A stretch of 64,000 nt of DNA, taken from assembly GCA_045614985.1 (NCBI GenBank), contig JAZLDX010000025.1:39177-103176 (forward strand), given 5' to 3'. The translations under genes and the position numbers were made by a program. Below, one piece after another: positions 7,999 through 40,438 of this stretch; position 1 is the first letter of the stretch; each line of letters opens with the position of its first letter. The DNA is from Alistipes sp. Lineage in GTDB: Bacteria; Bacteroidota; Bacteroidia; Bacteroidales; Rikenellaceae. Under the pieces are notes generated by a model. That model was given only the letters and a program-made list of their open reading frames with translations, made no database searches and had not been told where the DNA came from.

Positions 7999-9585
7999 AT
8001 GAAAAAGCTCCTTTCCCGCATCGCTCTTGGGGCGATGGCTCTTCTGATGCTCGCCGGCACCGTGCATGCCGAGGAGTTGCTCTTGGTTCCCCAACCCCTC
8101 TCTGCTGTACTCACCGGAGGTATTTTCAAGGTGACGGCCAAGACCCCGCTGATCGTGGAGTCGGGCGATGAAAATCCGGCCCGCATCTTTGCCGAGCAGA
8201 TGATGCCCCTCTTCGGGCAGAAAAAACCGATGACCATCACGACTCGGGGGGAGGGAATCCGCCTGAGCATCGACCCCACATTGGCCGCCGAGGGCTACCG
8301 GATGGTAACTACCAAAAAGGGGATTCGTATCTCGGGAGGCACTGAAGCGGGGATCTTCTACGGCCTGCAGAGCCTTCGACAGCTGATCCACACCTACGAG
8401 GGTCGCATCCCCTGTGGGGAGATCCTCGATGCCCCGAACTTTGCCTACCGCGGGGCCCACTTTGATGTCTGCCGCCACTTCTTCACGGTCGAGGAGGTAA
8501 AGCGCTACATCGACATCCTCGCGGCCCACAAACTCAACCGTCTCCATTGGCACCTAACCGACGACCAGGGGTGGCGCATCGAGATTAAGGCCTATCCCGA
8601 ACTCACAGAGAAGGGCTCCATGCGCAAGGAGACCCTGATCGGCCACTGCCACCGTCCCGAGGGATTCGACGGAATCCCCTATGGAGGCTACTACACACAA
8701 GAACAGATTCGAGAGGTGGTAGACTACGCCGCAAAACGCTATATCACAATTGTCCCAGAAATCGAAATGCCGGGTCATGCCCAAGCGGCCCTCCATGCCC
8801 TTCCGTGGCTTGGATGCCAAGAGCAAAAGGTCGATGTGTGGTCCATGTGGGGCGTAACTCCCGAAGTAATGTGCGGAGGCAAAGAGACGACCTATGAGTT
8901 TTTAGAAACGGTGTTGAGTGAGGTGATCGAGTTGTTCCCCTCGGAGTTGATCCACATCGGTGGCGACGAGTGCCCGAAGGAGCGCTGGAAGGTCTGCGAG
9001 CATTGCCAGGCCCGCATGGAGGCCCTCGGCTTGGAGAGCGAGAACCAACTGCAAGGTTACCTAATCGAGCGCATCGAAAAGTTCCTGAACGGTTATGGTC
9101 GCCGCCTGATCGGTTGGGACGAGATCCTGGAGTGTGGCGTTACCCCCACGGCCACGGTGATGTCGTGGCGCGGCACGGAGGGGGGCATCACCGCCGCCAA
9201 GCGTGGCAACCAGGTAGTGATGACCCCCATGGAGCCCTGCTACTTCGATTTCTACCAAACCAAGAGCCAGGAGGGCGAAGGATTGCAGATCGGAGGCCAC
9301 GTCTCTTTCGAGAAGGTCTATGCGTGGGATCCCTATAAGGGGTTGAACGAAGAGGAGAAAAAGTACATCCTCGGGGTGCAGTGCAACCTCTGGACAGAGT
9401 ATATCCTCGACTTTGAGACCGTGGAGAAGAAACTCCTGCCTCGCCTGGCCGCCCTTTCAGAGGTGCAATGGGCTACGGAGCGTCGCAACGAAGCGACCAT
9501 CCGTCCTCGCATGGAGCAACTGCGTAAATTCTACGAGGCCTACGACTGGAACTACGCACCCTACTACTTCGAGGGGCGCGAGTAA
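7999..9585 (+). CDS. Beta-N-acetylhexosaminidase, GH20
   Basis: D.P.F.YRG.H.DVCRHFF, HWHLTDDQGWR, PEIEMPGH, catalytic HIGGDE; signal peptide; start moved to ATG 7999 downstream of TATCTTTG (7967-7974). Confidence 0.93.
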   Translation: MKKLLSRIALGAMALLMLAGTVHAEELLLVPQPLSAVLTGGIFKVTAKTPLIVESGDENPARIFAEQMMPLFGQKKPMTITTRGEGIRLSIDPTLAAEGYRMVTTKKGIRISGGTEAGIFYGLQSLRQLIHTYEGRIPCGEILDAPNFAYRGAHFDVCRHFFTVEEVKRYIDILAAHKLNRLHWHLTDDQGWRIEIKAYPELTEKGSMRKETLIGHCHRPEGFDGIPYGGYYTQEQIREVVDYAAKRYITIVPEIEMPGHAQAALHALPWLGCQEQKVDVWSMWGVTPEVMCGGKETTYEFLETVLSEVIELFPSELIHIGGDECPKERWKVCEHCQARMEALGLESENQLQGYLIERIEKFLNGYGRRLIGWDEILECGVTPTATVMSWRGTEGGITAAKRGNQVVMTPMEPCYFDFYQTKSQEGEGLQIGGHVSFEKVYAWDPYKGLNEEEKKYILGVQCNLWTEYILDFETVEKKLLPRLAALSEVQWATERRNEATIRPRMEQLRKFYEAYDWNYAPYYFEGRE

Positions 9586-17063: not shown

Positions 17064-18260
17064 ATGAAGCGACTCCTTCTCCTTTTTCTGCTGATTAGCG
17101 TTTCTGTTTCGGCACAGCAAACCCAATTAAAGCTTCCCAAAGGCTACAGCCTCTCTACGCAACCCAAAGCCTCACAAGAGGGATTTCATCTGGTCGTAAA
17201 AGGCGAAGGGGAGCATGCCCGCTACGGCTATGCCAACCGCGAAGGGGAGATCATAATCAAAGCCCAATACCGCTATGCCCACCCCTTCCTAAACGGCTAT
17301 GCCATCGTGGCCGAGGGCCCCATGGGTGGTGACCTGAAAGGGTTGATCGACACCACGGGGCGGATGGTAACCCCGATTTGCTGGAGTCATGTGGGAGCGG
17401 TCGTCGAGGGGCACTTTGTCGTCTGCGAAGAGGAGGATTCGGGCAAGAGAAGCTACTACTACCTAAACACCCAGGGCGAAAAACTCTTTGACCGCGCCTT
17501 TGACTATGCCGACGACTTCAGCGAAGAGGTTGCCGTGATCGGTGTCGGCACTTGGGAGCGCCCCACGGTTCCCGACAACGTGAAACTTCCCGAAGGGTAT
17601 ACCCTCAGGATGCGCGATATAGCGGCAAAATTCAAGGGCCTGTATGGTCTGATTGATACTCTGGGCCGCGAGATCATAGCCCCCAAATACCTCAAAATCG
17701 ACAAGATGCATAATGGTCTTGCCATTGCAGCGATCGAGGGGAAATATTATCCCAAATATGGTTATCTGAATCGCAACGGCGAACCGGTCATCCCCTTTGA
17801 TTACTACCAGGCCGAAAGGTTCAACGACGGACTGGCCGTGGTGTGTAAAGTCGTTCAAGGGGAGCCAAAATATGGTTATATCGACCTCACGGGGCGCGAA
17901 GTGATCCCCATTCGCTGGGACTACGCCTCTGCTCACGAATTCGGCCGCCTGTGGGTGGGTGAAAACGAGGGAGAGGCCATGCGCTACATGTTGCTCGACA
18001 GCCAGGGACGCGAACTCCTCTCGCAATGGGTCTATTCCCTAAACCCGAGCGGCCGCTACGGTCACGCTTCGTGTGCCATTGCCGACGCCACGGGACAACT
18101 TCGTTTCGGGGTGATCTCTTCGCGTGGCAAGGTGATCATCCCCTTCGAATACGACCAAATCAGCCTCTACTCGGAGTGGGACAATGCCTCGCAACGTTAC
18201 ATCGAGAGGGGCATTGCCTACCGGGATGGGATGTCGCTTCCCTTCACGCTGAATCGATAG
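17064..18260 (+). CDS. Secreted WG-repeat protein
   Basis: Signal peptide; repeated YGY(I/L)D..G..VIP..Y..A..F.DGLA units. Confidence 0.85.
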   Translation: MKRLLLLFLLISVSVSAQQTQLKLPKGYSLSTQPKASQEGFHLVVKGEGEHARYGYANREGEIIIKAQYRYAHPFLNGYAIVAEGPMGGDLKGLIDTTGRMVTPICWSHVGAVVEGHFVVCEEEDSGKRSYYYLNTQGEKLFDRAFDYADDFSEEVAVIGVGTWERPTVPDNVKLPEGYTLRMRDIAAKFKGLYGLIDTLGREIIAPKYLKIDKMHNGLAIAAIEGKYYPKYGYLNRNGEPVIPFDYYQAERFNDGLAVVCKVVQGEPKYGYIDLTGREVIPIRWDYASAHEFGRLWVGENEGEAMRYMLLDSQGRELLSQWVYSLNPSGRYGHASCAIADATGQLRFGVISSRGKVIIPFEYDQISLYSEWDNASQRYIERGIAYRDGMSLPFTLNR

Positions 18261-22217: not shown

Positions 22218-23762
22218 TTAGAGGCTCAATTTCTTGAACAAACGGGCAAACGAGCACTCCTCATCTACCATACGCTTCAGGTCACTGATGGCGATGCGCT
22301 CCTGCTGCATCGAGTCGCGATGACGCACCGTAACGGTTCCGTCCTCCAGGGTCTGTCCATCGACCGTCACACAGAAAGGAGTACCCACAGCATCCTGACG
22401 GCGGTAACGCTTGCCTACCGAGTCCTTCTCGTCGTAAACCACATTGTAGTCGTACTTGAGTTCGTCCACAATCTTGCGGGCCACCTCAGGCATGCCATCC
22501 TTCTTTACCAAGGGCAGCACGGCCACCTTGACGGGGGCGAGGGCTGCGGGGAGCTTCAGCACCACACGCTGATCGCCACCCTCGAGGGCCTCCTCGGTAT
22601 AGGCAGCCGACATCACCTGCAAGAACATACGATCCACACCGATCGAGGTCTCCACCACATAGGGGACATAACTCTCACCACGCTCGGCATCGAAGTACTG
22701 AATCTTCTTACCCGAGAACTCCTGGTGGCGACCCAAGTCGAAGTCCGTGCGCGAGTGAATACCCTCCACCTCTTTGAATCCGAAGGGGAAGTTATACTCC
22801 ACATCGGTAGCGGCATTGGCGTAGTGGGCCAACTTCTCGTGGTCGTGGAAACGATAGTTCTCGTCACCGAAACCGAGGGCGCGGTGCCAAGCCATACGGG
22901 TCTCCTTCCACTTCGACCACCACTCCATCTCCGTACCGGGCTGCACGAAGAACTGCATCTCCATCTGCTCGAACTCGCGCATGCGGAAGATGAACTGACG
23001 AGCCACGATCTCGTTGCGGAAGGCCTTACCGATCTGGGCAATACCAAAGGGGAGCTTCATGCGGCCCGTCTTCTGCACATTAAGGAAATTCACGAAGATA
23101 CCCTGTGCCGTCTCGGGACGCAGGTAGATGGTGTTGGCACCCTCGGCCGTCGAACCCATCTGGGTCGAAAACATGAGGTTGAACTGGCGCACATCGGTCC
23201 AGTTGCGCGTACCCGAGATAGGGCAGACGATCTCGCAGTCGAGAATGATCTGCTTGAGCTCCTCCAGGTCATTCTCGTTCAGCGCCTTCGTGAAACGATC
23301 CAATACAACCTGCTTCTTTTGGGCAATCTCCAACACACGGGGCGAAGTCGAACGGAACTGTTCCTCGTTGAAGGCCTCGCCAAAACGCTTCTTGGCCTTA
23401 TCAACCTCCTTCTGCATCTTCTCGTCCTGCTTGGCCATCCAATCCTCCACAAGCACATCAGCGCGGTAACGCTTCTTCGAGTCGCGGTTGTCGATCAACG
23501 GATCATTGAAGGCGCCCACATGGCCCGAAGCCTCCCAAGTTTTGGGGTGCATGAAGATCGCGGCATCAATACCCACGATATTCTCGTGGAGCTTGACCAT
23601 CGAATCCCACCAATAGCGTTTGATGTTGTTCTTAAGCTCCACACCATTCTGTCCGTAATCGTAAACGGCACCCAGGCCATCGTAAATCTCGCTCGAGGGG
23701 AATACGAATCCATACTCCTTGCAGTGAGCGACCAACTTCTTAAAGAGTTCTTCCTGTGTCAT
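22218..23762 (-). CDS. glyQS: Glycine--tRNA ligase (homodimeric type)
   Basis: EIYDG...YDYG..G.ELK, LRPETAQGIF, FRNEI...FIFRMREFEQME, GKRYRRQD; promoter TATCTTTG at 23812-23819 (-). Confidence 0.96.
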   Translation of the reverse strand: MTQEELFKKLVAHCKEYGFVFPSSEIYDGLGAVYDYGQNGVELKNNIKRYWWDSMVKLHENIVGIDAAIFMHPKTWEASGHVGAFNDPLIDNRDSKKRYRADVLVEDWMAKQDEKMQKEVDKAKKRFGEAFNEEQFRSTSPRVLEIAQKKQVVLDRFTKALNENDLEELKQIILDCEIVCPISGTRNWTDVRQFNLMFSTQMGSTAEGANTIYLRPETAQGIFVNFLNVQKTGRMKLPFGIAQIGKAFRNEIVARQFIFRMREFEQMEMQFFVQPGTEMEWWSKWKETRMAWHRALGFGDENYRFHDHEKLAHYANAATDVEYNFPFGFKEVEGIHSRTDFDLGRHQEFSGKKIQYFDAERGESYVPYVVETSIGVDRMFLQVMSAAYTEEALEGGDQRVVLKLPAALAPVKVAVLPLVKKDGMPEVARKIVDELKYDYNVVYDEKDSVGKRYRRQDAVGTPFCVTVDGQTLEDGTVTVRHRDSMQQERIAISDLKRMVDEECSFARLFKKLSL

Positions 23763-23921
23763 ATATCGTTAATTTTTGTTGTCTTTATTTTGTTCGTTCG
23801 ATTACAACCTGCAAAGATACAAAATAATTAGGAATGAGGAATTATTTGATTCAAAATTATTTTTACGGTTCGACCACGGGAGAGATTCTAAATTAACCCA
23901 TGAGGCGGCAATCGGGCCATG

Positions 23922-23938
23922 TTGGCACAATCCTTGCC
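23922..23938 (+). promoter_or_regulatory. Putative sigma-54 (-24/-12) promoter for crcB-ure operon
   Basis: TTGGCACAATCCTTGCC = TGGCAC-N5-TTGC with exact GG-N10-GC spacing, ~32 nt before the crcB ATG; no TAnnTTTG on this strand in the intergenic region. Confidence 0.7.
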
Positions 23939-23969
23939 TGCCAAGGGCAAAGAATCGCAAAAACAAAAT

Positions 23970-24350
23970 ATGCCTATGATACGCTTGATGCTAATAGCCG
24001 GAGCCGGTGGCTTTTTGGGAACCTGCCTCCGATTTTTGGTGGGACGCTATATGCACCACATCGCCCCTGCGACAGCCTTTCCATGGGGTACCTTTGTTGT
24101 CAATGTGGTGGGGTCGCTCCTGATCGGAGTGCTCTACGGCCTCTCCGAAAAGCACCACCTGCTCTCTCCGGCCGCCTCGGCCCTGCTGATCACGGGCCTC
24201 TGCGGAGGTCTTACCACCTTCTCCTCCTTTGCCGACGACCTCTATCTGTTGCTTGCCGAACGCCACCAGGTACTCTTCGTGGTCTACCTTGTGATGAGCT
24301 TTGCCCTGGGTCTTACGATGGTGATGCTCGGACGAGCCGTCATAAAATAA
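23970..24350 (+). CDS. crcB: Fluoride efflux channel Fluc/CrcB
   Basis: GAGGFLGTCLRF, FPWGTF.VN..GS..IG, GLCGGLTTFSSF; start at 23970 or 23976. Confidence 0.93.
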   Translation: MPMIRLMLIAGAGGFLGTCLRFLVGRYMHHIAPATAFPWGTFVVNVVGSLLIGVLYGLSEKHHLLSPAASALLITGLCGGLTTFSSFADDLYLLLAERHQVLFVVYLVMSFALGLTMVMLGRAVIK

Positions 24351-24379
24351 AGAGAATGCAAAATTTTATAACTCTTGAT

Positions 24380-24407
24380 TCCTAATACCTAATTTCTAAT
24401 TCCTAAA
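24380..24407. repeat. Tandem heptamer repeats before ureA
   Basis: TCCTAAT ACCTAAT TTCTAAT TCCTAAA; inverted relative to ATTAGGA ATGAGGA at 23827-23840. Confidence 0.65.
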
Positions 24408-24411
24408 AACT

Positions 24412-24714
24412 ATGCATTTAACACCGAAAGAGATTGAAAAGCTGATGCTTTTATCGCTGGGTCAGGTGGCCGAGCGACGCAAAGCCAAGGGGTTGAAGCT
24501 CAACTACCCCGAAGCCGTGGCCTACATCACGGCAAGTGCCCTGGAGGGTGCCCGCGAAGGCAAGAATGTAGAGCAGGTCATGAAGGAGGCTGCCCAGGTA
24601 CTCCGTCGCGAAGATGTGATGGAGGGGGTTGCCGACATGATCGGGCTCTTGCAGATCGAGGCGGTATTCACCGACGGATCGAGACTCGTAAGTATTCACC
24701 AACCAATCAAATAG
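24412..24714 (+). CDS. ureA: Urease gamma subunit
   Basis: [40 protein letters not shown]. Confidence 0.97.
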
Positions 24715-24716
24715 AC

Positions 24717-25223
24717 ATGAAAAACAGTTCTCTCTATCCCTGCGAGGCAGGGTTTGTACCTCGGAAGGCCGTACCAGTCGGCGGACTTCTTTTTGCCGAG
24801 GAGCCGATCCAATACAACGAGGGACGCCCCGTAATCACTTTGTCCGTGAAAAACAGGGGAGATCGTCCGATTCAGATAGGCTCCCATTTCCACCTCTTCG
24901 AGGCCAATCGCTACTTGGAATTCGACCGCAAAGCGGCCTTCGGATGCCATCTGAACATCCCCGCCACCACCGCCATTCGCTTCGAGCCCGGAGATGAAAA
25001 GCAGGTCGAGGCGGTCCCCTTCGGCGGAAAACAGCGCATCATCGGCTTCAACGGGTTGGTACAAGGCTACACCGGAGGAGAGGATGCGCCGATCTACGAT
25101 CCGACGAAACATCGGGCCATCCACCGCATGAAAAAACTCGGCTTCTGCCACACGGAGTCGCAGGACTGCGGCCACGACGAAAAGAAAGATTCAACCACAA
25201 CGAGCAAAACAAAAGAAGAATAG
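24717..25223 (+). CDS. ureB: Urease beta subunit
   Basis: [41 protein letters not shown]. Confidence 0.97.
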
Positions 25224-25226
25224 ACA

Positions 25227-26945
25227 ATGGCTACAATTTCACGACAGGCCTACTGCGACCTCTTCGGTCCGACGGTAGGCGATAAAATCCGCCTCGGGGA
25301 TACGGATCTCTATGTAGAGATCGAAAAGGATCTGCGCGTTTACGGCGACGAGGTGGTCTATGGCGGAGGCAAAACCTTGCGCGATGGCATGGGGCTGGCC
25401 AACGGCACCTCATCGAAAGAGGGGTCGCTCGATCTGGTCATCACCAATGTAACGATCATCGACCCCGTACTGGGCATCGTTAAGGCGGATGTTGGGATCA
25501 AAGATGGTAAAATTGCCGGCATCGGCAAATCGGGAAACCCCGACACGATGCCCGGGGTCTCGCCCGAATTGGTTACAGGAGCCTCGACCGATGCCATCTC
25601 GGGCGAGCATCTGATTCTGACGGCAGGCGGTATTGACGGCCATGTCCACATGATCGCCCCGCAGCAGGCCGAGGCGGCCCTCTCGAACGGAATTACCACC
25701 CTGATCGGGGGTGGCGTGGGCCCCACGGATGGCACCAACGGCACGACAATCACCTCGGGGGTTTGGAACGTGGAGCGCATGTTGGAGGCGGCCGAAGCAT
25801 GGCCGGTCAACATCGGGCTGTTGGGCAAGGGGAACTGCTCGGGCAAACAATCCGTAGCCGAACAACTCGAAGCGGGCTGCTGTGGTCTGAAGATCCACGA
25901 GGATTGGGGCTCTACCCCCCAGGCGATTCGCACCGCCCTGAAGGTGGCCGACCGCTACGATGTACAGGTAGCCATCCACACCGACACCTTGAATGAGGGG
26001 GGCTATGTCGAGGATACGATTGCCGCCTTCGAGGGACGCACGATCCACACCTATCACACCGAGGGTGCAGGCGGAGGCCATGCCCCCGACCTGTTGAAGG
26101 TGGCCTCGATGCACAACGTCCTCCCTTCGTCCACCAACCCCACCCTGCCCTTCGGCATCAACTCGCAGGCCGAGCTCTTCGATATGATCATGGTGTGCCA
26201 CAACCTCAATCCGAAGATCCCCTCCGATGTTTCGTTTGCCGAGAGCCGCGTACGCACCGAGACACAGGCCGCCGAAAATATGCTCCACGACCTGGGGGTA
26301 TTATCCATGGTTTCGTCCGACTCCCAGGCCATGGGACGCGTGGGCGAGAGCTTCATGCGCACCTTCCAGATGGCCTCCTACATGAAGCAGGCTTGCGGAA
26401 GGCTGAAGGAGGACTGCTCCGAGAACGACAACTTCCGCGTCAAGCGTTACTTGGCGAAGATCACCCTCAACCCAGCCATCTGCTTCGGCATTTCGGACTA
26501 TGTGGGCTCGATCGAAAAGGGCAAGGTGGCCGACCTGGTCCTGTGGGATCCCGCCATGTTCGGAGCCAAGCCCAAGATGGTGATCAAGGGCGGCATGATC
26601 AGCTGGGCCAACATGGGCGATCCGAACGCCTCGTTGCCCACCCCGCAACCGATGTGCTACCGTCCGATGTTCGGAGCCTACGGATCGGCCCTCAAGCGCA
26701 GCTGCATCTCCTTCGTATCGCGAGCAGCCTGCGAACTCGGCATCAAAGAGCGTTTGGGCCTCGAGCGTTGCGTGAAGCCCGTTCACCACACCCGACAGCT
26801 CACCAAAGAGCACATGTGGATGAATGGCTCGACCCCCAAGATCGAGGTAGACAGCCAAACCTTCGAGGTGCGCATCAACGGAGAGGTGGTATCGCTCAAG
26901 CCGACCGAAAAGGTGGCTCTGGGACAACTCTATTGGTTCAGCTGA
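25227..26945 (+). CDS. ureC: Urease alpha subunit
   Basis: Ni ligands and flap intact: [49 protein letters not shown]. Confidence 0.98.
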
Positions 26946-27541
26946 TGGCCGGCGAGATCATTTCCCGGATTTTGGGGAATCGAGCCGAAAAGGGTTGGGC
27001 CGAGAGGCTCTCCCACGGCTCGATTGACACCCTGGAACTCGACCGATGGACGGCTCAGAAGAGCCGCCTCATCGGCCGCAGTTCGCGGGGCGAGGAGGTG
27101 GCCGTTGCCCTGAACCGTCCCCAGCGGCTCCACGACGGCGACATTCTACGCTACAATCCCTCAACCGGAGAGGCCCTGGTCGTACACCTACGCCTTGGCG
27201 AGGTGCTGGTGATCGACCTCGAGGAGCCGAAGGGAGGATCACCCGAGGAGCATCGGGAGCGCCTTTTCGAGTTGGGCCACGCCATCGGCAACCAACATTG
27301 GCCCGCCGTGATTCACGACAAGCGGGTCTATGTCCCCCTGGCGGTAGATCGCAAGGTGATGCAGAGTGTCCTCGAGAGCCACCGCTTCGAGGGGATTTCC
27401 TTCCACTTCGAGGCGGGCAACGAGGTGATTCCCTACCTCTCGCCCCACGAGATTCGCCGCCTGTTTGCCGGAGCCGACCCCCACGAACACAAGCACGAAC
27501 ACCAAAAAGAGGGCACCCATGATCCCCACGGAAAAGAGTAA
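26945..27541 (+). CDS. ureE: Urease accessory nickel chaperone UreE
   Basis: ATG overlaps the ureC TGA; QKSR, L.DGD.L, ELGHAIGNQHWPA, short His-rich tail (HEHKHEH). Confidence 0.92.
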   Translation: MAGEIISRILGNRAEKGWAERLSHGSIDTLELDRWTAQKSRLIGRSSRGEEVAVALNRPQRLHDGDILRYNPSTGEALVVHLRLGEVLVIDLEEPKGGSPEEHRERLFELGHAIGNQHWPAVIHDKRVYVPLAVDRKVMQSVLESHRFEGISFHFEAGNEVIPYLSPHEIRRLFAGADPHEHKHEHQKEGTHDPHGKE

Positions 27542-28229
27542 TCGCTCGGTCTGTGAACTTTTTCGGCTGATGGAGTTCTCCGACTCTGCCCTGCCTGTGG
27601 GAGGTTTCAGTTTCTCATGTGGGGTGGAAACAGCCACAGCCTGTGGAATGATTCACGACGAAGAGTCGCTCGGAGAGTATCTGCTCGCGACGGCCCGTCA
27701 GGTCGCAACCTGCGACGGCGTGGCCGCCCTTGCAGCTCACCGCGCCATTCTCCGTCAGGACTGGGAGGCCTTTGCGGCCGCTGACCATCGGATTGGGCTC
27801 TTCAAGACGGGAGATGAAAATCGCCGTATGAGCCTGCGCATGGGCCACAAACTCGGTCAATTGACCCGACAAGTACTCCCCCAAAAGGAGATTATCAAGT
27901 GGAGCGAAGCTGTGATGCGGGGTAAAATCGAGGGGCACCATGCCCCGATGCTGGGGTTGCTCTTTGCCCTCACCGGACAAAACGAAGAGCAACTCTTCGC
28001 CTCGCTACTCTATGGGACAGCGTCCCAAATCACGGGAGCAGCCCTACGCCTGATGCGCATAGACCACTTCGCCACCCAACGCCTGCTCTACGCCTTGGGC
28101 GAAGAGGTCGCGAGGCTTTATGAGGAGCTCTCCCCACTCGAGATGGGGGAGATGCACCTATTCGGCCCCGAACGCGAGATCCTGGCCTCAATGCACGAAG
28201 AGGGCCCGCAACGTATGTTTATGAATTAG
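27519..28229 (+). CDS. ureF: Urease accessory protein UreF
   Basis: [29 protein letters not shown]-terminal HEEG..RMFMN. Confidence 0.93.
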
Positions 28230-28341
28230 CGCCGGAGGTGCGCACTCCGCTCCTCCTTTTCCCCAAAAACCTCCTCCGCAACCGAAAAAAAAATCGGAAG
28301 AGAAAATAAACGGAACAAAACGAAAATACCGAAGAATCGAA

Positions 28342-28971
28342 ATGAGTTGCAGAATTGGAATCGGCGGCCCCGTGGGATCGGGAAAGACCGCCCTGATCGA
28401 AGCCCTTGTCCCCCGCCTGCTTGAGCGAGGGCTTCAAGTGCTGGTTATCACCAACGACATTGTTACCACAGAGGACGCCCAACACGTCCGACGCACGCTG
28501 AAAGGGGTGCTCCACGAGGATCGCATCCTCGGTGTGGAGACCGGAGCCTGCCCTCACACGGCCGTGCGAGAAGACCCATCGATGAACTTAGCCGCTGTCG
28601 AGGAGATGGAGAACCGTTTCCCCGAGACGGATGTGGTATTGATTGAGTCGGGAGGCGACAACCTCACGCTCACCTTCAGCCCCGCCCTGGTGGATTTCTT
28701 CATCTATGTGATCGACGTGGCGGCCGGCGACAAAATTCCCCGCAAGGACGGCCCAGGAATCTCTCAATCGGATATCCTGGTAATCAACAAGTTCGACCTG
28801 GCCCCCTATGTAGGAGCCTCGCTCGAGGTAATGAAGCGCGATTCGGAGAAGATGCGCCCCGGGAAACCCTTTATTTTTACAAACTGCATGACGGGCGAAG
28901 GAATTGAAGAACTCCTGAGACTAATTTTTCGCATGGCTCTTTTCGACCTCGAAACACCTACTGAAGCGTGA
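28342..28971 (+). CDS. ureG: Urease accessory GTPase UreG
   Basis: [40 protein letters not shown]. Confidence 0.97.
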
Positions 28972-29885
28972 AATCCGAATTCCAACATATACGCGAACTG
29001 CGCCCCTACCTAAGCGACCCCCCTGCTATGGCCGCCGGAGGAGCCGGGAAACGAGGCTACTTATACCTCGGTTTCGAATGCAACAGCCAAGGGAAGACTT
29101 TGTTGCGCCATTGGGAACGCCGCGCCCCGATGATCGTACAGCAGGCCCTCTACTTCGACGAACGCCTCCCCTCGATGGCTTGTGTCTATATGCTCTCGGC
29201 CGGCGGCCCGCAGGTGGATGGCGACCGCTACCGTTGCGAGGTGCATGCCGGAGCCCAAAGCGAGGTACACCTCTCGACGGGAGCCGCCACCAAGGTGGCT
29301 ACCATGCGCCACAACTTTGCCGCCTCAGAGCAGCATTTCAGGCTCGACGATGGGGCCTACATGGAGTATCTGCCCGAGCCGGTGATCCCGGCCCGCGGAG
29401 CCCGACTTTGGAGTCACACAGAACTTACGATCGCCCCCTCAGCCACCCTCTTCTATGGGGAGTGTTACCTCTCGGGGCGACACCACCACCTCGAAGAGCG
29501 ATTCCAGTACGACCTACTCTCACTCAATCTCCGGGCACAACGACCCTCGGGAGAGGAGCTTTTTTGCGAGAAAATTCTGCTCGAACCCGCGCGGCACACC
29601 CCCACGGGATTGGGGGTGATGGGTCGGTATGAACTCTTTGCCACGGCCCTAATCCTGACGCCTCCCCCACAACGCGAGGCAATCCTAAAACGGGTACGGG
29701 AGCTGATTGGCTTTCGGTCGGAGTGGGCTCTCGGGATCCTCCGCCTACCCTCTGATGCGGGGCTCGTCTGCCGCATCTTAAGCCGGCAGAGCGACGAAGC
29801 CAAGAGGCTGCTGCGCACCCTCTGCTCGGCCACGCGCGAGGTGATAAAGGGGGTTCCGATGCCCGAGGAGTTTCCCTGGCGATAG
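28968..29885 (+). CDS. ureD: Urease accessory protein UreD
   Basis: GTG start overlapping the ureG stop; [18 protein letters not shown]; ends PEEFPWR. Confidence 0.9.
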
Positions 29886-29933
29886 CCACCAAGTCGCAAC
29901 CAATATAAACGTAAAATTTAAAGACGTATCTCT

Positions 29934-30959
29934 ATGGAAAACAATCTTTCAACTGAAAATTCCCTGCGGGGAATGATCTGCGGCACCGGCCAAGTGATGT
30001 TTCAACAAAACCTTTGGTGCAGCCTGCTCTTTTTGATCGGTATCTTTTGGGGTGCCTGGGCCGAGGGACGGATCTCGGTGGCCTGGGGCGGATTGGTCGG
30101 ACTCATCGTCTCCTACCTCACGGGGCGTATCTTGGGGCTCAAAGCCGAAGAGGGCGAGCAGGGCTTGTGGGGTTTTAACGGCGTTTTGGTCGGTTGTGCA
30201 ATCATGACCTTCCTGAGAAGTACCCCGCTGACCTGGTGCATCCTCATCCTGGGAGCTGCCCACACGGTTTGGCTGCGCGAAGGATTGAACCGCATCATGG
30301 CCAAATGGAAAGTAAACTCGATGACCATGCCCTTTGTCCTGACCACCTGGATGTTGCTGCTTGCCGCACGCGGACTGAACGGGCTTCCGATCGAGGGGCT
30401 TTCGACTCCGATGTTCCCCCACGCCGCAACGGCCCACATCGCCACCGGACCGCTCCACCTGCTCCTCTATTGGCTGCGCGGCATCGGTCAAGTCTTTCTG
30501 ATCGACTCCTGGATCACGGGACTCTTCTTCCTGGCGGGCCTGATCGCCGCAAACGGCTGGTCGGCCTTTTGGGCCGCCTTCGCCTCAGCCCTCTCGCTCG
30601 CCGTGGCCCTGCTATTCGATGCGCCGGGATTGGGTATCAGCGAAGGACTCTACGGCTTCAGCCCCGTATTGACGGGCATTGCCTTGGGTTCGATCTTCTA
30701 CCACCCCTCATGGCGTTCGGCTCTCTGGGCCATTGTCGGCATTGTGATCACACTCTTTGCCCAGGCAGCCACCAATTCGCTGCTCTCTCCGCTGGGTCTA
30801 CCCTCACTCACGGCCCCCTTCTGTTTTGTTACCTGGGTATTCCTGCTCCCGATGTTTTCGCTCGAGAAGCACCCCTTCTCCAAAAAGAGAGAGACCCCCA
30901 GCCACGAGGCCGACCACTCGGATTGGAACCCCGCCCGCAAACCCCACCTCAAAGGATAG
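29934..30959 (+). CDS. Urea transporter (UT/Yut family channel)
   Basis: Duplicated halves: GQVMF...GLWGFNG...SMTMPF and GQVFL...GLYGFS...LPSLTAPF; about 10 TM segments. Confidence 0.9.
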   Translation: MENNLSTENSLRGMICGTGQVMFQQNLWCSLLFLIGIFWGAWAEGRISVAWGGLVGLIVSYLTGRILGLKAEEGEQGLWGFNGVLVGCAIMTFLRSTPLTWCILILGAAHTVWLREGLNRIMAKWKVNSMTMPFVLTTWMLLLAARGLNGLPIEGLSTPMFPHAATAHIATGPLHLLLYWLRGIGQVFLIDSWITGLFFLAGLIAANGWSAFWAAFASALSLAVALLFDAPGLGISEGLYGFSPVLTGIALGSIFYHPSWRSALWAIVGIVITLFAQAATNSLLSPLGLPSLTAPFCFVTWVFLLPMFSLEKHPFSKKRETPSHEADHSDWNPARKPHLKG

Positions 30960-30983
30960 TTGGCCTACACAAGGCCTTGCACA

Positions 30984-31014
30984 AAGCCCACCGGAGATTG
31001 TCCGGTGGGCTTGT
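30984..31014 (+). terminator. Hairpin closing the urease operon
   Basis: AAGCCCACCGGA-GATTG-TCCGGTGGGCTT. Confidence 0.65.
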
Positions 31015-31113
31015 CGGGTATAAATTTGCGTATTCGCGTTTTTTTTATTAGTTTTGTAAGTTAGAAAGCCCCCGCTTCGAAAACAAACAATACTAACAAT
31101 AAAAACAAAGGAC

Positions 31114-39019: not shown

Positions 39020-40438
39020 CTAAATCTGTTTGCGCAGGCGGGCGACAGGAATACCCAGCATCTCGCGGTATTTGGCCACCGTGCGACGGGCTATGCGATA
39101 TCCCTTGTCGTTAAGCATCACCATGAGGGTCTCGTCGGTCAAGGGGCGACGCTTCTCCTCGCCATCAATAAAGCGTTGCAGCAGGGTCTTCACCTCATAG
39201 CTCGACACCTCCTCGCCCGAATCGGTCTGCATCGCCTCCGAGAAGAGCGATTTCAGCAAGATGATGCCGAAGGGCGTTTGCACATATTTACTATTAACGA
39301 CACGCGAGATGGTCGAGACATCGAGCCCCGTACGGTCGGCGATATCTTTAAGAATCATCGGGCGCAACTTCGACTTGTCACCATCGCGGAAATACTCCAT
39401 TTGGTAGTTCAGGATCTCCTGCATGGTACGCATCAGCGTGTCGTGTCGCTGGCGGATAGCCGAGATAAACCACTTGGCCGAGTCAATCTTCGACTTCACG
39501 AACTGCACCGCTTCACGATTCTCGCTCTTGACCGAGCCGTCGGGCTGCACCATCTCGCGCATCATCTCCACATAGCGACGATTGATCTTCACCTCGGGAA
39601 CCCCCGTGGAGTTGAGCGAGAGGTCGAACTGCCCATCGTGGTAGTCGAGTACAAAGTCGGGAATGATATAGGGGGTCGCCTCACTCCCCCCTTCGGCATA
39701 GAGGTTTCCGGGCTTGGGCGAGAGGTGGCGAATCTCTTGCAACGCCTCGCGAAACTCCTCCTCCGAGACCTGCAAACGCTGAATCAGCTTCTCGTAGTGT
39801 TTTTTGACAAACTCCTCGAAGTTGTGTTCAAGGATTCGCTTGGCCAATCGGCGCGACCGGGTGGTCGGTGGGATCTGATTCATCTGCAATAAAAGGCACT
39901 CTCGCAGATCGCGAGCTCCGATGCCGGCCGGCTCCAACTCGTGAATCACCTCAAGAAGTCGCTCCAATTCTTGCTCCGAGGTCTCAATGCCGAGCGTAAA
40001 GGCGATGTCGTCGGCAATCGAGAAGAGCTCGCGCCGAAGGTAGCCGTCCTCGTCGATCGACCCAATCAGGTAGACCGCCAGACGCAACTGTCGCTCCGAG
40101 AGGTTGCGATAACCGAGCTGCTCGACCAAATACTCCTGCAACGAACGCCCACCCGAGAGGTAGACCGTGCGCTGCTTGTCGTCCTTCGAAAAGTTGTTGA
40201 TGCGACTCTTATAGGCTGGGGTATCATCCTCTTTGAGATACTCCTCCACGGAGATTTGACGGGGCTCCTCCTCAGCGTCCCCCTGTCGCTCCTCCTCTAA
40301 GACAATATTCTCCTCGATCTCCTGCTTAATGCGTTGTTCGAGTTGCATGGTGGGGAGCTCCAGCAACTTGATCATCTGAATCTGCTGCGGAGAGAGCTTC
40401 TGCTGAAGCGTCAGGAGTTGTTTTTGGTTTATTGCCAT
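39020..40438 (-). CDS. rpoN: RNA polymerase sigma-54 factor
   Basis: Q/L-rich region I, P.GIGAR.L.ECL, STISRV, RpoN box ARRTVAKYRE. Confidence 0.97.
   Translation of the reverse strand: MAINQKQLLTLQQKLSPQQIQMIKLLELPTMQLEQRIKQEIEENIVLEEERQGDAEEEPRQISVEEYLKEDDTPAYKSRINNFSKDDKQRTVYLSGGRSLQEYLVEQLGYRNLSERQLRLAVYLIGSIDEDGYLRRELFSIADDIAFTLGIETSEQELERLLEVIHELEPAGIGARDLRECLLLQMNQIPPTTRSRRLAKRILEHNFEEFVKKHYEKLIQRLQVSEEEFREALQEIRHLSPKPGNLYAEGGSEATPYIIPDFVLDYHDGQFDLSLNSTGVPEVKINRRYVEMMREMVQPDGSVKSENREAVQFVKSKIDSAKWFISAIRQRHDTLMRTMQEILNYQMEYFRDGDKSKLRPMILKDIADRTGLDVSTISRVVNSKYVQTPFGIILLKSLFSEAMQTDSGEEVSSYEVKTLLQRFIDGEEKRRPLTDETLMVMLNDKGYRIARRTVAKYREMLGIPVARLRKQI

Follow-up and report, generated by a model that had tools for sequence, protein, structure and literature searches.

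The question raised by this locus is why a gene for a fluoride channel should stand at the head of a urease operon. The locus lies in a stretch of 64,000 nucleotides from Alistipes sp. (family Rikenellaceae; assembly GCA_045614985.1, contig JAZLDX010000025.1), which is called the window here and is numbered from its first letter. In it the gene crcB, coding for a Fluc-type fluoride channel, is followed in the same orientation by a full set of urease genes and by the gene of a urea transporter (UT). The explanation that we favour, although only by somewhat better than even chances, is a crcB-urease-UT operon driven by sigma-54, in which the Fluc channel guards ureolysis from fluoride. The region of the window is present in DNA runs from bovine and other gut metagenomes.

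Gene organization of the locus

The first-pass annotation of the window had described co-oriented crcB, ureABCEFGD and urea transporter genes with one apparent promoter and one terminator. Pfam backs every one of these gene calls, all on the forward strand, and the two ends can be assigned to an exact sigma-54 element and a hairpin. The features are as follows.

23923-23937, forward strand: sigma-54-type promoter, -24 element TGGCAC, five nucleotides and -12 element TTGC (TGGCACAATCCTTGC), 32 nt before the crcB ATG
23970-24350, forward strand: crcB, Fluc-type fluoride channel of 126 amino acid residues (Pfam PF02537)
24351-24411, forward strand: crcB-ureA spacer, 61 nt, AT-rich, with no terminator or recognisable promoter
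24412-24714, forward strand: ureA, urease gamma subunit (Pfam PF00547, Urease_gamma)
24717-25223, forward strand: ureB, urease beta subunit (Pfam PF00699, Urease_beta)
25227-26945, forward strand: ureC, urease alpha subunit, the dinickel catalytic subunit (Pfam PF00449, PF01979)
26945-27541, forward strand: ureE, nickel metallochaperone (Pfam UreE_N, UreE_C), its ATG overlapping the ureC stop codon
27519-28229, forward strand: ureF (Pfam PF01730)
28342-28971, forward strand: ureG, GTPase (Pfam cobW/UreG)
28968-29885, forward strand: ureD (Pfam PF01774)
29934-30959, forward strand: urea transporter of the UT/Yut type (Pfam PF03253, 294 bits)
30984-31012, forward strand: terminator-like hairpin with a 12-bp G+C-rich stem

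The ureABC and ureEFGD sets are complete, with seven of seven full-length open reading frames (ORFs) above the Pfam cutoffs. UreC scores 1025 against the NCBIfam equivalog NF009834 (cutoff 1001), and the urea transporter scores 268.3 against TIGR03441, slightly below the cutoff of 274.6. The intergenic distances from crcB to the UT gene are, in order, 61, 2, 3, -1, -23, 112, -4 and 48 nt. From the sigma-54 promoter to the hairpin, crcB-ureABCEFGD-UT probably forms one transcription unit in the window organism.

Promoter, terminator and riboswitch

The match at 23923-23937 is the only exact sigma-54 -24/-12 element in the 64-kb window, where shuffled sequences lead one to expect 0.06. The canonical GG and GC elements, their spacing and the placement before a gene are all found in it. 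Its position indicates that crcB starts at 23970 or 23976 and not at the in-frame ATG 23919, which sits 4 nt 5' of the promoter element and whose frame crosses the element. The sigma-54 factor required in trans is encoded in the window by rpoN (39020-40438, reverse strand; Pfam Sigma54_AID, Sigma54_CBD and Sigma54_DBD). This gene is full-length, lies about 8 kb downstream of the urease operon, and its product scores 425 against TIGR02395 (cutoff 277).

The -7 box of Bacteroidota promoters, TAnnTTTG, occurs 40 times in the window, with 18 expected, and mostly just 5' of gene starts. On the forward strand there is none 5' of crcB and none across 24097-31020; the next ones are at 31021 and 31049, before the OPT transporter gene. 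One match is found inside crcB at 24089-24096, within the codons of the conserved GTFVVN motif, and is explained by the coding constraint on this motif. The crcB-ureA spacer contains neither a TAnnTTTG box nor a sigma-54 motif, and no stable structure or attenuator was found in it (fold z-score -0.15). A scan with the sigma-70 consensus gave one weak match, below chance expectation, and is uninformative for Bacteroidota.

The hairpin at the other end has a fold z-score of -3.83 against shuffles. The first T run begins about 30 nt 3' of it, and a simple terminator scan did not list the site. Terminators of Bacteroidota are frequently without U tracts.

The first-pass annotation had also failed to find a fluoride riboswitch at crcB. 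Searches with the Rfam model RF01734 agree with this, giving no match at the gathering score in the whole window or at E<=10 in 23650-24500. However, the absence is not special to this operon, as eight other loci, including a Bacteroidales crcB unlinked to urease, are equally without a match at the gathering score.

CrcB as a fluoride channel

The product of crcB scores 95.6 bits against PF02537 (cutoff 32.9) and 84.3 against TIGR00494, the NCBIfam equivalog of the fluoride efflux transporter (cutoff 80.45). The Fluc signature used for comparison consists of an Arg in the first transmembrane helix (TM1), an Asn in TM2, the TM3 break GGxTTFS(S/T)F with its Phe box, and an acidic residue after it. 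In the alignment with the crystallised Fluc-Ec2 (PDB code 5A43) all of these are conserved, the TM3 break as GGLTTFSSF. The corresponding segments of CrcB and Fluc-Ec2 are LRFL and LRWL, VVNVV and VVNLL, and GLCGGLTTFSSF and GLCGGLSTFSTF, with D in place of E. The signature residues are likewise intact across the urease-linked CrcB homologues. By every sequence criterion applied, the CrcB of the window is an ordinary Fluc.

Distribution of the crcB-urease link

The link was surveyed in the 80 species-representative loci closest in UreC (designated by L numbers), onto which the window proteins were mapped by tblastn and in which the ORFs were read. A crcB gene lies within 10 kb of urease in 27 of the 80 loci, 26 from the tblastn map together with the contig-truncated L010. 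Chance proximity would be about 1-2%, on the assumption that a 2.5-3 Mb genome has one or two crcB genes. The adjacency is thus not peculiar to the window genome and recurs across Bacteroidales and Proteobacteria, in at least six architectures among the 27 loci. The arrangements are as follows.

crcB directly upstream, co-oriented: window, L001, L063
crcB directly upstream, divergent, with a spacer of 84-340 nt: 15 Alistipes, Tidjanibacter and other Rikenellaceae loci and the truncated L010
crcB directly after the UT gene, its start overlapping the UT stop: L036
crcB after the UT gene and a gene of the major facilitator superfamily (MFS), co-oriented: L014 and L015 (Odoribacteraceae)
crcB pair, divergent upstream: L043 (Muribaculaceae)
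crcB pair, convergent downstream: L038 (Muribaculaceae)
co-oriented crcB pair after UT-amtB: L074 (Desulfovibrionaceae), L078 (Bilophila wadsworthia)
crcB pair between ureC and ureE: L061 (Crenobacter intestini)
convergent crcB pair beyond the nik/cbi nickel transporter genes: L076 (Brucella anthropi)

The placement of crcB as first gene of the urease operon, as proposed in the first-pass annotation, therefore holds for the window but not for most relatives, in which crcB is divergent beside ureA. Among the Rikenellaceae loci with enough upstream sequence only L003 is without crcB. The closest CrcB homologues on long contigs (P0006, P0027, P0042 and P0065) are all urease-linked, and the more distant homologue P0115 is not. 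The outer neighbour of the urease-linked crcB varies, being glyS, an aldo-keto reductase, an L-PSP protein, a methyltransferase or a tRNA, and within Rikenellaceae the link is kept in at least five outer contexts.

The tree of CrcB proteins has four groups. One consists of the Bacteroidales singletons and another of two Muribaculaceae paralogues; the others are a pair from Brucella and Crenobacter, a lineage to which the Laribacter pair is also assigned, and a pair from Desulfovibrionaceae. All four are linked to urease, which implies at least four recruitments. The singleton group comprises Rikenellaceae, Odoribacteraceae and L036, with the unlinked L089 alongside. Within Bacteroidales part of the recurrence is due to common descent, after which the loci were rearranged but kept the link. 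In the UreC tree the three co-oriented loci form one sub-clade nested among divergent loci, so that the inclusion of crcB inside the operon is a derived event.

Several details of these loci were observed besides. A tRNA gene lies directly beyond the divergent crcB in two Alistipes species (L002:8429-8502 and L009:66-138) and is a possible landmark for placement of the module in Alistipes genomes. The MFS transporter (Sugar_tr-type, about 458 residues) follows the UT gene in the Odoribacteraceae loci (L014:15899-17275, L015:15743-17131) and in a Muribaculaceae locus (L038:15795-17168); where crcB is present, it stands between UT and crcB. An MFS/Sugar_tr gene also adjoins the UT gene on the opposite strand in Alistipes L084-L086. 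Of the crcB pair near the ure2-like/nik region in Brucella anthropi, one subunit carries a DUF302 domain fused at its C-terminus and has 270 residues in total (L076:19253-20065, reverse strand).

Sigma-54 motifs in related loci

In most of the Rikenellaceae loci with divergent crcB a sigma-54 motif is located 34-76 nt before the ureA ATG, in most cases with 9-10 of the 10 specified bases. Seven exact matches were found in 1.37 Mb of loci, four of them at crcB/ureA positions. The motif before ureA was not found in Muribaculaceae or other groups outside Rikenellaceae. It is also absent before ureA in Bilophila and Desulfovibrionaceae; L074 nevertheless has an activator gene upstream of its urease. 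In about 11 divergent loci the opposite strand has a second, weaker sigma-54-like motif 34-48 nt ahead of the crcB ATG. This motif scores 10-13 of 14, and shuffles reach at least 11 in 7.7% of the spacers. Such putative back-to-back sigma-54 promoters are no more than suggestive of crcB/urease co-regulation even where the genes are divergent. A sigma-54 promoter of Bacteroidota urease operons is apparently unreported, no literature search having been aimed at it.

A second activator gene near a urease is that beside ureF in the contig L088 (626-1846, reverse strand), coding for an enhancer-binding protein with Sigma54_activat and HTH_8 domains and no receiver domain. The contigs L087 and L088 encode the same CrcB (P0042) and have identical called-gene coordinates from ureF on, then differ: beyond ureF one carries ureG-ureD, and the other (L088) carries the enhancer-binding protein gene and lptE. 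The two contigs may differ through rearrangement between strains or through chimeric assembly, or the difference may hint at which activator serves the urease promoter.

Comparison with the nearest relative

The nearest genome locus, L001, belongs to a Rikenellaceae metagenome-assembled genome and has the identical synteny def-ruvX-glyS-crcB-ureA. The protein identity to L001 is 96-98% for the flank (def, ruvX and glyS) and 60-91% for the crcB-urease-UT module, and the DNA identity is 81-89% for the left flank and 72-77% from crcB to UT. An identical 16-mer with the sigma-54 motif is found upstream of the L001 crcB; the remaining intergenic DNA is not alignable. The DNA alignment of the two loci picks up again exactly at this motif, and the synteny stops after UT. 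The drop in identity and the restart of the alignment at the sigma-54 motif indicate that crcB moves with the urease module and not with the flank. The gap between module and flank suggests that the module either was exchanged as a cassette or has evolved faster.

An imperfect 33-nt inverted repeat (left arm 23826-23858, right arm 24362-24394), 73% complementary and AT-rich, flanks the promoter and crcB in the window. It may possibly be the scar of an inversion that fused crcB into the operon. Its function as an invertible switch was considered and rejected, as the arms are only 73% complementary and AT-rich and no recombinase is nearby. L001 has tandem repeats around crcB that are lacking in the window: (AAAATTC)x4 upstream (8430-8460) and, in the crcB-ureA spacer (9075-9125), three copies of the 14-nt unit AATAAAGAATTTTC.

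Expression evidence

Two other organisms provide evidence on expression. The urease cluster of Laribacter hongkongensis consists of LHK_01035-01037 and LHK_01040-01044 (PMC2652115), and LHK_01038 and LHK_01039 are crcB genes annotated as 'camphor resistance' (PMC3125207). The numbering in these two papers places both crcB genes inside the urease cluster. In the RNA-seq data of the supplementary table of PMC5234827 (37 °C over 20 °C), the fold changes are 9.0, 8.2 and 10.5 for ureA, ureB and ureC, 12.1 and 10.0 for the crcB genes LHK_01038 and LHK_01039, as well as 9.3, 8.8, 8.1 and 8.9 for ureE, ureF, ureG and ureD, respectively.

For Bilophila, four transcriptomic runs, whose source is a close relative of B. 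wadsworthia, were mapped to L078. An RNA contig of 8,796 nt begins inside ureA (9451) and ends at 18244, where it has passed the stop codon of the second crcB by six bases. From a library treated with DNase came a contig that covers UT, amtB and both crcB genes, and none of the four runs has any RNA depth before 9127 or after 18282. This is strong evidence for a single mRNA from ureA to the second crcB, although not formal proof, as the contigs are assemblies. The co-regulation of crcB and urease that was proposed in the first-pass annotation is thus found as co-induction in Laribacter and as a co-transcribed contig in Bilophila, while for the window organism we infer it.

Proposed mechanism and alternatives

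Two of the biochemical premises of the first-pass annotation are documented. Fluoride inhibits the dinickel site of urease: it displaces the hydroxide bridging the Ni ions and also binds Ni(1) (PMC7433671), and 1 mM NaF abolishes ureolysis by K. pneumoniae cells and jack bean urease (PMC7244745). Fluoride enters the cell as HF and accumulates by the pH gradient, and Fluc permits its electrophoretic exit (PMC11139923). In the mechanism that we propose, the sigma-54 holoenzyme with an enhancer-binding activator would transcribe the genes for Fluc, urease, nickel insertion and the urea channel together. Fluc, as a passive F- channel, lets the membrane potential expel fluoride and would so keep cytoplasmic fluoride low exactly while urease works. 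The channel would be needed for two reasons. Fluoride, bound at the dinickel centre, blocks urease, an enzyme then in high demand; in addition, ammonia produced in the cytoplasm raises the internal pH and with it the trapping of HF-derived fluoride. These reasons are compatible, and protection of urease itself or of the whole cell would be versions of one explanation.

A third premise, that the urease serves acid resistance, is not established for the window organism. The window urease belongs to the Yersinia/Brucella/Photorhabdus-type family, and some ureases of this type serve acid survival. However, nitrogen scavenging from bovine-gut urea is no less plausible; a promoter of the sigma-54 type, a habitat in the bovine gut and the presence of peptide and nitrogen genes nearby fit it equally well.

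Several observations weigh against the proposed guarding of ureolysis by a sigma-54-driven Fluc. The window encodes no enhancer-binding protein of the GAFTGA type, and if crcB were the only fluoride exporter of the genome, its control by sigma-54 would be odd. Most urease loci of the clade (most Muribaculaceae, Photorhabdus and Alistipes L003) have no crcB nearby, so that the link is facultative, and the Bacteroidales singleton CrcBs are one clade, so that part of the recurrence is shared ancestry. The sole related metatranscriptome match consists of fragments of ureB, ureC and ureE at 90-95% identity, none of which crosses the crcB-ureA junction.

The facultative nature of the link would agree with a neutral origin, in which a housekeeping crcB happens to lie beside the insertion site of a mobile urease island and the co-orientation is an accident of local inversion. 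The linked and the unlinked (L089) singleton CrcBs form one clade typical of the order, and an imperfect inverted repeat surrounds the promoter and crcB. The urease module is indeed mobile, with UreC 70-76% identical across phyla and horizontal transfer inferred in PMC2652115. Against this, at least four unrelated CrcB lineages stand in at least six positions, including the overlap with UT (L036) and the insertion between ureC and ureE (L061, Laribacter); in Rikenellaceae the link has outlasted changes of the outer neighbours; Bilophila and Laribacter co-transcribe or co-induce crcB and urease; and 27 of 80 loci far exceed the expectation from chance. We therefore regard a neutral linkage as quite unlikely. 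Separate transcription of crcB and urease in the window genome is also rather unlikely, if somewhat easier to imagine. The ureA promoter would then be situated in the 61-nt spacer or inside crcB, at the TACCTTTG box (24089). The AT-richness of the spacer, the -7-box match within crcB, the status of crcB as a separate divergent unit in most relatives and the restriction of the window-related RNA matches to ureB, ureC and ureE are consistent with this. However, the spacer is without the sigma-54 motif that stands before ureA in relatives, and in the window and L001 this motif is found only before crcB; the match at 24089 has its explanation in the GTFVVN codons, and there is no terminator after crcB.

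It could also be asked whether the linked CrcBs carry another small anion of ureolysis, such as carbamate, bicarbonate or cyanate, in place of fluoride. The sole support is that the clusters also collect transporters of substrates and products (UT, AmtB, MFS and Nik/Cbi). Against it, the residues defining a fluoride-conducting Fluc are all conserved, the protein scores above the cutoff of the CrcB equivalog model, each linked CrcB falls within the CrcB clade of its taxon as an ordinary member, and Fluc channels are described as extremely fluoride-selective. This possibility appears very improbable. A sigma-54-driven operon with Fluc as a guard of ureolysis keeps our preference at the modest level given above. 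A broader proposal, which is plausible but tentative and to which we would give slightly less than even chances, is that Fluc is a repeatedly recruited inhibitor-export part of the ureABCEFGD-UT modules of gut bacteria across phyla, beside UT for uptake of the substrate, AmtB for the product and Nik for uptake of the cofactor; ambient fluoride would act as a brake on ureolysis, and in Rikenellaceae the genes would form a sigma-54 regulon, divergent or fused.

Neighbouring and minor features

The upstream neighbour of the operon is glyS (22218-23762, reverse strand), identified from the ORF listing and Pfam. Downstream of the urease unit are the genes of an OPT peptide transporter and then pepT. 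The ureF-ureG spacer (28230-28341, 112 nt) is purine/A-rich; a metagenome contig (run X1) carries a variant that lacks 106 nt of it (28228-28335), so that the spacer is dispensable and strain-variable. A match to the Rfam model '5_ureB_sRNA' (RF02514), antisense in ureC at 25377-25677 on the reverse strand, was rejected as a small RNA. All urease loci scanned (L002, L009, L014, L036, L043, L061 and L078 besides the window) have this match above the gathering threshold at the same relative position, and so it reflects conserved coding sequence matching a model built on H. pylori.

Comparison with known systems

The closest described counterpart is the Laribacter cassette LHK_01035-01044, which like the window has ureABC, ureEFGD and a urea channel, with a urease of the Yersinia/Brucella-type family and with crcB inside. 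It differs in having two crcB genes, a heterodimer-type pair of another CrcB lineage, between ureC and ureE, whereas the window has a single one before ureA. The Laribacter authors named the crcB genes 'camphor resistance' and left them out of the cassette, and no sigma-54 promoter was noted there. The Yersinia ure-yut and Brucella ure2 (ureABCEFGD-ureT-nik) clusters also have ureABCEFGD followed by a UT-family channel, with the same UreC equivalog. In Brucella anthropi (L076) a convergent crcB pair stands outside the operon, right after the nik genes, and Photorhabdus (L075, L077 and L080), unlike the window, has no crcB within 10 kb. The Yersinia and Brucella clusters serve acid resistance.

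By the same concept, the urease operon of Helicobacter pylori includes UreI, a small inner-membrane channel that tunes cytoplasmic conditions for urease. UreI is proton-gated and imports urea, while the Fluc of the window would remove an inhibitor, and the two proteins are unrelated. Genomic coupling of a fluoride exporter to fluoride-sensitive metalloenzymes is known from the fluoride-riboswitch regulons, in which crcB or CLC-F accompanies enolase, pyrophosphatase and further genes (Baker et al. 2012, in the account of PMC11139923). Those regulons respond to fluoride; the exporter of the window has no riboswitch and follows the enzyme's own sigma-54-type promoter. The neighbours of exporters listed in this 2024 review are enolase, pyrophosphatase, chorismate mutase, formate hydrogen lyase and cation transporters, and urease is not among them. 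The first-pass annotation had not recognized the arrangement as a described operon architecture, and in full-text literature (subscription journals being outside the scope) no paper was found that describes or interprets a link between crcB/Fluc and urease. Each component is already known. What appears to be undescribed is the coupling, together with its breadth and its sigma-54 wiring in Rikenellaceae.

Were the link conserved, urease would join the few enzymes that are visibly defended against fluoride, and a long-ignored gene pair in the urease regions of Laribacter, Brucella and Bilophila would be explained. The sigma-54 promoter points to an activator of Bacteroidota urease operons. The link would also be a testable handle on the effect of dietary and environmental fluoride on microbial urea hydrolysis, which matters for the nitrogen economy of ruminants, for hyperammonaemia and for urease-dependent acid survival. 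If the broader proposal is correct, ambient fluoride would be a physiological brake on intracellular ureolysis, and hence on the recycling of urea nitrogen in the gut of ruminants and other hosts.

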